Source: a virus (taxonomy: Duplodnaviria > Heunggongvirae > Uroviricota > Caudoviricetes). Taken from it: a stretch of DNA of 43,597 nucleotides. How positions within the stretch are numbered: position 1 is the stretch's first letter; the number at the start of each line of letters is the position of its first letter. The position numbers and the translations under genes were made by a program. The stretch is taken from positions 1 to 43,597 of IMG/VR virus record IMGVR_UViG_2778261529_000002. One strand, given 5' to 3'. Of this stretch, positions 8,057 through 8,305 are shown piece by piece. The notes below the pieces were generated by a model. It had not been told where the DNA came from, did not search any database, and saw only the letters and a program-made list of their open reading frames with translations.

Positions 8057-8305
8057 CTACTCTATTTCTTCTTCGAATGATTTTATTAGTCGGTCAATAA
8101 CATCATCCGTTTCAATATCATTTCCGTCTGATTGCTTTAATACATCTATTGATTCTGCAGCGGTAAATTCCATCGCTGTGAGAAACTCGACAATTGTACA
8201 CTCAACGACATATCGTTCTTCATCTGTACGACATGAGATAAAAGAGCATTTAATTGCTGTTATTACTTTTTGTTTAAGCTCTGCAGGGTAATCAGTTTTT
8301 ATCAT
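8057..8305 (-). CDS. Small acidic hypothetical protein (82 aa)
   Basis: GGAG SD; first gene after the tL1-like terminator; acidic composition. Confidence 0.55.
   Translation of the reverse strand: MIKTDYPAELKQKVITAIKCSFISCRTDEERYVVECTIVEFLTAMEFTAAESIDVLKQSDGNDIETDDVIDRLIKSFEEEIE

Follow-up and report, generated by a model that had tools for sequence, protein, structure and literature searches.

The ORF82 locus

The window, by which we mean the entire 43,597-nucleotide stretch of viral DNA that was analysed, carries on its minus strand an open reading frame of 82 codons with an ATG start, here called ORF82, which is flanked by the genes for the antiterminator N and for cIII (Table 1). That an Asp/Glu-rich protein of 82 residues is encoded at this position had been proposed in an earlier, sequence-only reading, and this was confirmed: the open reading frame is preceded by a ribosome-binding site, 24% of the residues of its product are acidic, and the peptide quoted at the time, DGNDIETDDVIDRLIKSFEEEIE, makes up residues 60-82. 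The HMM of PHROG 14587 aligned residues 1-82 of ORF82 with positions 1-82 of its 82-position profile (E 5.3e-48), and alignments showed that the GGAG motif is kept in HK446, ECP1 and the related sequence L023. When ORF82 was compared with its 64%-identical prophage homologue in L005, pS and pN amounted to 0.87 and 0.26, respectively, with the synonymous sites being saturated. Together, these comparisons indicate that ORF82 is a real and conserved gene under purifying selection. A search with the family profile returned no significant second copy in the window or in Bas77.

Table 1. Positions of the features described in the text, in nucleotides of the window
Feature	Position	Strand	Basis and remarks
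98-aa ORF	5476-5772	-	Only the first 43 or so residues match Oad2 (95% identity); C-terminal part differs
Gp33 homologue	7547-7720, start likely 7705	-	86.5% identity over 52 aa to HK446/HK75 Gp33; PHROG "recombinase"
cIII, maximal ORF	7839..8024	-	Pfam cIII E 4.6e-30; 98% identical to HK446 cIII
G+C-rich hairpin at ORF82/cIII junction, overlapping the ORF82 stop	8041..8058	-	Terminator scan lists it on the plus strand; reverse complement on pL transcript
ORF82 (82-aa acidic protein)	8057..8305, stop codon included	-	ORF list; PHROG 14587; orthologue of HK446 gp36
Shine-Dalgarno GGAG of ORF82	8312..8315	-	Read from upstream sequence, 6 nt before ATG
Predicted intrinsic terminator before ORF82	8319..8348 (hairpin 8327-8348, U8 8319-8326)	-	Terminator scan; lambda tL2a homologue
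Conserved leader or "boundary" sequence	8349..8445	-	Alignments; common to lambda, Sf6 and L023
sieB-position ORF	8548-9051, start likely 8557	+	164-167 aa; 99% identical to HK446_037 (HK620p16-like); PHROG 1244 (function-less label)
Antiterminator N, maximal ORF	9044..9457	-	Pfam N36 E 1.6e-24
nutL	about 9478..9510	-	boxA GCTCTTAA, boxB GCCCTGAAGAAGGGC; read from sequence; lambda-like; boxB hairpin also in terminator scan
oL, three 434-type operators overlapping pL	9554..9621	.	ACAA-N6-TTGT pattern
Lipoprotein-like signal-sequence ORF	9672-10148	-	Between cI and pL/oL; lambda rex position
Tandem tRNA-Asn(GTT), tRNA-Thr(TGT)	16424-16579	+	

On the opposite strand, ORF82 is overlapped by a Ser-rich ORF of 94 aa (8007-8291, plus strand) that exceeds it in length, and naive longest-ORF gene calling selects this frame over ORF82. 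The family profile matched the minus-strand frame only and not the Ser-rich one.

The plus-strand ORF at 8548-9051 is convergent with N, overlaps the 3′ end of N by 8 nt and lies where lambda has sieB. Its product combines an N-terminal half that resembles a coiled coil with a CxxC...CxxC pattern in the C-terminal part. The ORF might represent an exclusion or defence gene that is expressed from the prophage and read antisense by the pL transcript. The minus-strand ORF at 9672-10148 sits where HK446_039, annotated as similar to Sf6 gene 38, is found, and it looks like a lysogen-expressed moron. Gp33, of which a homologue is encoded downstream of cIII, was reported to suffice for setting off the abortive system P2 Old and to be a possible RecBCD manipulator; according to the same preprint, the tRNA-Thr(UGU) of HK446 withstands cleavage by Old and rescues phages that are sensitive to it (bioRxiv 10.64898/2026.07.10.737580). 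Since the likeness of the 98-aa ORF to Oad2 is restricted to the N-terminus, the phage may have retained the Old trigger but no functional Oad2.

The terminator in front of ORF82 and the leftward early operon

ORF82 is preceded by a predicted intrinsic terminator with a G+C-rich stem of 7-8 bp followed by U8, and the 66-nt stretch that contains it (8300-8365) folds with -18.6 kcal/mol (z -2.67). This terminator had been described as tL1-like, an assignment that did not withstand alignment: about 135 nt upstream of ORF82, hairpin and T-run included, proved to be near-identical to the ral-ea10 intergenic region of lambda and likewise to an Sf6 element annotated "terminator; homology to phage lambda; tL2A". 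The exact 22-mer of the terminator is absent from lambda and Sf6 owing to one loop mismatch, and it was the alignment that revealed the homology. Moreover, the terminator is kept in HK446 and ECP1. As judged from these alignments, the structure in front of ORF82 is homologous to lambda tL2a and not to tL1. The Sf6 equivalent of the leader at 8349-8445 is annotated "bsq4; boundary sequence", and the flanks of ECP1 diverge from the window upstream of about 8440-8455. Within the conserved leader, the stretch 8409-8436 forms a perfect inverted repeat of 9 bp (GTGTATTCA-N10-TGAATACAC) and precedes the tL2a hairpin; an Rfam scan of 7400-9800, which includes this repeat, returned nothing meaningful.

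The pattern ACAA-N6-TTGT occurs five times in the window, where 0.81 occurrences are expected; three of these are at 9554-9621 and the other two at oR (10760-10795). The window carries 434-type immunity, and the context of ORF82 is that of an N-dependent pL operon. Over 9047-9367, N of the window is 98% identical to the 107-aa N of HK446, and translation is likely to start at the ATG at 9367, yielding a protein of 107 aa. The HK022-type cIII product, in turn, probably starts at an internal Met-Met of the maximal ORF. ORF82 had further been proposed as the first gene reached by N-antiterminated transcription from pL. This holds for the window, in which no other credible sense-strand gene was found between N and ORF82, whereas in those relatives that keep ral it is ral that comes first.

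The terminator U-tract and the ribosome-binding site of ORF82 are separated by 3 nt, which leaves no space for a promoter of its own. ORF82 would consequently be made only upon read-through of pL transcription by means of N, and hence as an N-dependent delayed-early protein, as far as can be deduced from the arrangement of these signals.

ORF82 as cargo of the ea10 slot

The similarity of the window to lambda and Sf6 ends a few bases past the T-run of the terminator, and what follows is ea10 in lambda, gene 33 in Sf6 and ORF82 here. Since the upstream stretch represents the homologue of lambda tL2a, ORF82 occupies the slot of lambda ea10, between tL2a and cIII, and it is thus an alternative cargo of this slot in a mosaic module. 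The exact position of the swap point directly after the T-run illustrates how lambdoid modules exchange cargo yet keep their regulatory signals. The same interval holds ORF82 in HK446, ECP1 and Kapi1, with flanks that are 95-99% identical, while in Sf6, Sf101, HK544 and mEpX2 it holds other genes, including ral and Ea10. ORF82 conforms to what Silas et al. define as a gene of an accessory region, namely variable cargo between conserved flanks. Regions labelled "Ral" take the second, eleventh and fourteenth places in the enterobacteriophage diversity ranking of these authors (Supplementary File 2; bioRxiv 10.1101/2023.04.06.535777).

In relatives, ral and its neighbours sit in the adjoining stretch between N and tL2a. 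The window contains no copy of ral, of Ocr or of orf184 of Silas et al. An intact lambda-type ral (97-100% identity) was detected just upstream of ORF82 in 8 of the 27 related lambdoid viral contigs, where the gene order is N, ral, tL2a, ORF82, cIII. Since ORF82 adjoins an intact ral in these eight loci, it is not a substitute for ral. Remnants of ral were present in three more of the 27 contigs, ECP1 among them; the fragments lie upstream of the ORF82 orthologue in L028 (which is ECP1; 2509-2588), L027 and L035 and display 82-90% identity over short pieces. Comparison of ORF82 with P22 gene 17, orf78, orf87 and ral revealed no homology.

A compact and strongly acidic protein

With 20 Asp and Glu against 9 Lys and Arg residues, ORF82 has a net charge of -11 and a pI of 4.27. 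Its charge density of -0.134 per residue makes it the most acidic protein of the window, since the next value among the 73 other non-overlapping ORFs is -0.097. This acidity was found throughout the family, where the net charge ranges from -7 to -20 and the pI from 4.05 to 4.35, the Skatevirus homologues carrying -17 to -20 over 86-87 aa. Invariance among 25 diverse members is limited to M1, A17, G61 and D67, with E40 coming close; most surface positions vary while the acidity is kept. We take this to mean that the scaffold and its negative charge are conserved and that the surface is variable.

Structure prediction had been suggested as a check for a DNA-mimic surface. An AlphaFold2 model based on a 15-sequence alignment (mean pLDDT 88.5, pTM 0.76) showed a four-helix bundle with helices at residues 7-23, 28-44, 49-58 and 64-81, and the ORF82 product is thus confidently modelled as a compact, single-domain and strongly acidic four-helix bundle. 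The check thereby delivered a confident fold, but no fold relation to known inhibitors: a Foldseek search of the model against the PDB gave a best E of only 0.44 and no specific relative, and neither structure nor profile searches tied ORF82 by fold or sequence to any known inhibitor. No enzyme-like motif was found in ORF82. Searches of Pfam, NCBIfam and PADLOC gave nothing above threshold, and a Pfam scan of all 25 family members identified no consistent family. In BFVD, the model retrieved the family itself and one 74-aa, 25%-identical protein of Salmonella phage SeSz-2 (A0A411BGY7; Foldseek E 6e-4). Separately, Bas77_0062 (L015 24404-24697) matched the family profile with a non-significant E of 0.033; it is the first gene of a small cassette in which a superinfection-immunity gene is also present. 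On the basis of the SeSz-2 and Bas77 proteins, a very distant second paralogue may exist in Skatevirus-like phages.

Distribution of the family

Proteins that are 98.8% identical to ORF82 are encoded by HK446 (gp36), Kapi1 and ECP1, and copies with about 41% identity are present in about 100 siphophages of Salmonella, E. coli, Klebsiella and Shigella. Homologues at 25-66% identity were detected in phages and prophages of Escherichia, Salmonella, Klebsiella, Shigella, Edwardsiella and Shewanella/Aeromonas. A family profile search of 1.84 billion representatives yielded 33 proteins, the complete ones all being stand-alone proteins of 68-89 aa, and reciprocal profile searches returned the same set of 68-89-aa proteins (PHROG 14587). 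Among 5426 complete E. coli genomes, 58 contain the gene, annotated as hypothetical.

The contexts of the gene differ between these phages. In Skatevirus-like phages including Bas77, where it is Bas77_0047, the homologue is the first gene after a TTGACG-17-TATAGT site, which resembles a sigma-70 promoter, and it is followed by a 63-aa ORF, a ParB-like gene and a DNA methyltransferase gene. A homologue was found in 106 phage records, as compared with 128 records that match the large terminase of Bas77 at >=80% identity. Within the Skatevirus-like group the gene is conserved almost like a core gene, which would be compatible with an early housekeeping function as well. The order N, ORF82 homologue, cIII is seen in Edwardsiella prophages, and one lambdoid contig has a weak Ral hit immediately before the homologue, with cIII and Kil further downstream. 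In other prophages the homologue is the last gene before int, once after a faint Lar-like hit, and in siphophage contigs it is part of small cassettes beside N6/N4 methyltransferase, TetR and primase-polymerase genes, or lies between tail genes. Comparison of these contexts identified no partner gene that is kept across the family. The occurrence of the family in both temperate lambdoid and lytic Skatevirus-like phages argues for an infection-wide role and not for a role in lysogeny control.

Published experiments bearing on function

The HK446 orthologue (AFH20664.1) is UDP0194, one of the 200 accessory genes synthesised by Silas et al. (Supplementary File 3; bioRxiv 10.1101/2023.04.06.535777), and its product differs from ORF82 of the window only by T37A. 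HK446 gp36 had been chosen as an accessory gene by an annotation-blind method (bioRxiv 10.1101/2023.04.06.535777). The UDP numbers correspond to the orf numbers of that study, UDP0001 being ocr, UDP0002 arn, UDP0169 ardA and UDP0184 orf184. The gene, orf194/UDP0194, is absent from all conditional-lethal and host-sensitising hit lists (bioRxiv 10.1101/2023.04.06.535777), a negative that follows from hit lists and not from per-gene fitness values, and its annotation columns are empty there, unlike those of phenotype-bearing ORFs. The screen was pooled and used T phages, P1 and lambda on a subset of ECOR strains. For its lambda/MG1655 (EcoKI) arm it is stated that "ardA, ral, ocr are hits" (PMC12373910, Supplementary Dataset 1), and the HK446 orthologue of ORF82 is not listed among the hits of that arm (PMC12373910).

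Two further studies concern phages that carry the gene. Bas77, the carrier of the homologue Bas77_0047, was described as markedly sensitive to RM systems. When an HK446 genomic library was screened for inhibitors of P2 Old, gp27, that is Oad2, was recovered, while gp36 (HK446_036, which is ORF82) was not recovered among the ten colonies analysed (bioRxiv 10.64898/2026.07.10.737580).

Candidate functions

The explanation that we favour, as a plausible but tentative one, is that ORF82 is an N-dependent accessory counter-defence or host-takeover inhibitor of a putative host or rival-element protein. Carried as cargo of a mosaic module directly behind the tL2a-homologous terminator of the leftward early operon, it would be produced as a delayed-early protein when N drives pL transcription through this terminator. 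The protein would most likely act stoichiometrically, by binding and blocking a basic, probably nucleic-acid-binding, surface of its target, which on the published evidence would be neither EcoKI-type restriction nor the P2 Old system. We infer this mode of binding from size, charge and context. An inhibitor would be in keeping with the varying cargo of the tL2a slot (ea10 in lambda, gene 33 in Sf6, ORF82 here), with the patchy distribution of the gene, and with a family that combines conserved acidity, purifying selection and a confident helical-bundle model. In addition, the neighbouring pL region of HK446 holds proven conflict genes, namely the OLD trigger Gp33 and the inhibitor Oad2 (bioRxiv 10.64898/2026.07.10.737580). 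Arguing against it are the absence of the gene from the hit lists of Silas et al., the recovery of gp27 in the anti-OLD screen, the near-core status in the Skatevirus-like group, and the outcome of the searches described above, which linked ORF82 by neither fold nor sequence to a known inhibitor. Conceivably, gp36/PHROG 14587 could even constitute a new family of counter-defence inhibitors, blocking a defence or prophage exclusion system outside the hosts and phages screened and binding through its fast-evolving surface, but we regard this as rather doubtful.

Alternatively, ORF82 could serve a phage-internal or host-physiological role unrelated to immunity, as a small adaptor or regulator of an early process such as recombination, replication start, the host cell cycle or proteolysis, comparable to cIII, Kil and Ea10. 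We consider this unlikely, if still a serious contender. The location in the ea10 slot beside cIII and kil would suit such a role, as would the near-core presence in Skatevirus-like phages, in which its place before the ParB-like gene is fixed, and the missing counter-defence phenotype in the published screen. However, ORF82 is missing from most lambdoid phages with identical flanks and is, consequently, not needed for the core programme; its various contexts have no conserved partner gene in common, and the conditional-lethality arm of the screen reports no toxicity or growth phenotype.

The sequence-only reading had argued, from composition and context, for a DNA mimic or anti-restriction factor. 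The general observations behind that argument were substantiated, given that acidity is family-wide and that the slot is hypervariable, but the specific conclusion was not, and we judge it improbable that ORF82 fills the groove with which restriction enzymes of type I or another type bind DNA, in the manner of Ocr and ArdA. Such a role would be consistent with 24% Asp and Glu and a pI of 4.3, with a charge of the Skatevirus homologues that lies within the range of known mimics, with early expression and, in some phages, with the adjoining ral. It is also what the name suggests, since PHROG 14587 carries the label "anti-restriction protein", and RefSeq copies and recent submissions repeat this wording. 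Nevertheless, the original GenBank records of HK446, Kapi1 and many Skatevirus-like phages say "hypothetical", and the sole submitter record with such a label is that of ECP1 (ECP1_057), which reads "antirestriction protein ral". The ral remnant directly upstream is probably why ECP1 names its ORF82 orthologue in this way. The label presumably arose from the position of the gene or by a mix-up with its neighbour and then spread. When the family profile was compared by hhalign with lambda Ral, T7 Ocr, ArdA and T4 Arn, the probabilities were 0.1%, 0.23%, 0.04% and 0.14%, respectively; hmmsearch of the family against P22 Ral gave a score of -1.0, and there was no Pfam hit to PF11058. Furthermore, only ardA, ral and ocr scored in the lambda/MG1655 screen (PMC12373910), the homologue-carrying Bas77 is RM-sensitive, and the co-occurrence with intact ral speaks against a redundant function. 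With no relation to Ral, Ocr, ArdA or Arn, coexistence with ral, and published tests that were negative, the DNA-mimic proposal is left without support. We therefore conclude that the "anti-restriction" name of the ORF82 family is unsupported, and that the published tests speak against it.

Finally, it is hardly credible that ORF82 inhibits an HNH or other DNase in the manner of a colicin immunity protein: a phmmer search of PDB sequences aligned ORF82 45-77 with Im7 3-36 at E 0.22, and both proteins are small, acidic and four-helical with about 85 aa, but this non-significant match pairs helices 3-4 with helices I-II, out of register with the fold, and it was lost with the family profile and in fold searches, so that homology is effectively refuted. 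The probability left over from the favoured inhibitor reading and its three rivals goes to something outside them. By our assessment, ORF82 is unremarkable as an accessory gene of a well-known hotspot, yet truly uncharacterised.

What is useful here is the assignment of the terminator to tL2a rather than tL1, together with the finding that the propagated "anti-restriction" annotation is unsupported. The name has by now been copied in RefSeq and in PHROG-based annotations, including those of some phages proposed for biocontrol or feed use, and flagging it stops a false function from spreading. As the orthologue has already been synthesised (UDP0194) and lies in a proven conflict hotspot, it is a reasonable target for a wider screen against defence libraries.

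Comparison with known systems

Among the systems with which ORF82 can be compared, Ral of lambda and P22 (PF11058) is likewise a small delayed-early protein from the accessory region between N and cIII. In contrast to ORF82, Ral is Cys-rich and leans towards the basic side, and the two share no sequence similarity; ORF82 lies one slot further downstream, past tL2a. Ral scored in the EcoKI screen, whereas the ORF82 orthologue is absent from the hits. T7 Ocr and ArdA resemble ORF82 in being small, very acidic and early-expressed proteins without catalytic motifs, but they are unrelated in sequence and fold. Of the properties of the DNA mimics Ocr, ArdA and Arn, ORF82 thus displays the high negative charge (net -11 over 82 aa), while searches revealed no sequence or fold relationship to them. 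Similarly, no significant sequence or fold similarity to the colicin DNase immunity proteins Im7 and Im9 was found.

Lambda Ea10 and Sf6 gene 33 share the position of ORF82, their first codon being located a few bases past the tL2a hairpin and T-run, and Ea10 is also acidic at its C-terminus. Their sequences are nevertheless unrelated to ORF82 and their sizes differ, with 122 aa for Ea10 and 322 aa for the product of gene 33. HK446 gp36 (AFH20664.1) and the other members of PHROG 14587, including those of Kapi1, ECP1 (ECP1_057) and Bas77 (Bas77_0047), belong to the same family as ORF82 and show no structural difference from it. Oad2 (HK446 gp27), lastly, differs from ORF82 in being a separate 175-aa protein that is related to P22 EaE, but its gene belongs to the same pL operon in phages of the same type. 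Since Oad2 binds stoichiometrically to a defence protein, it is the nearest experimentally proven model for a possible action of ORF82.
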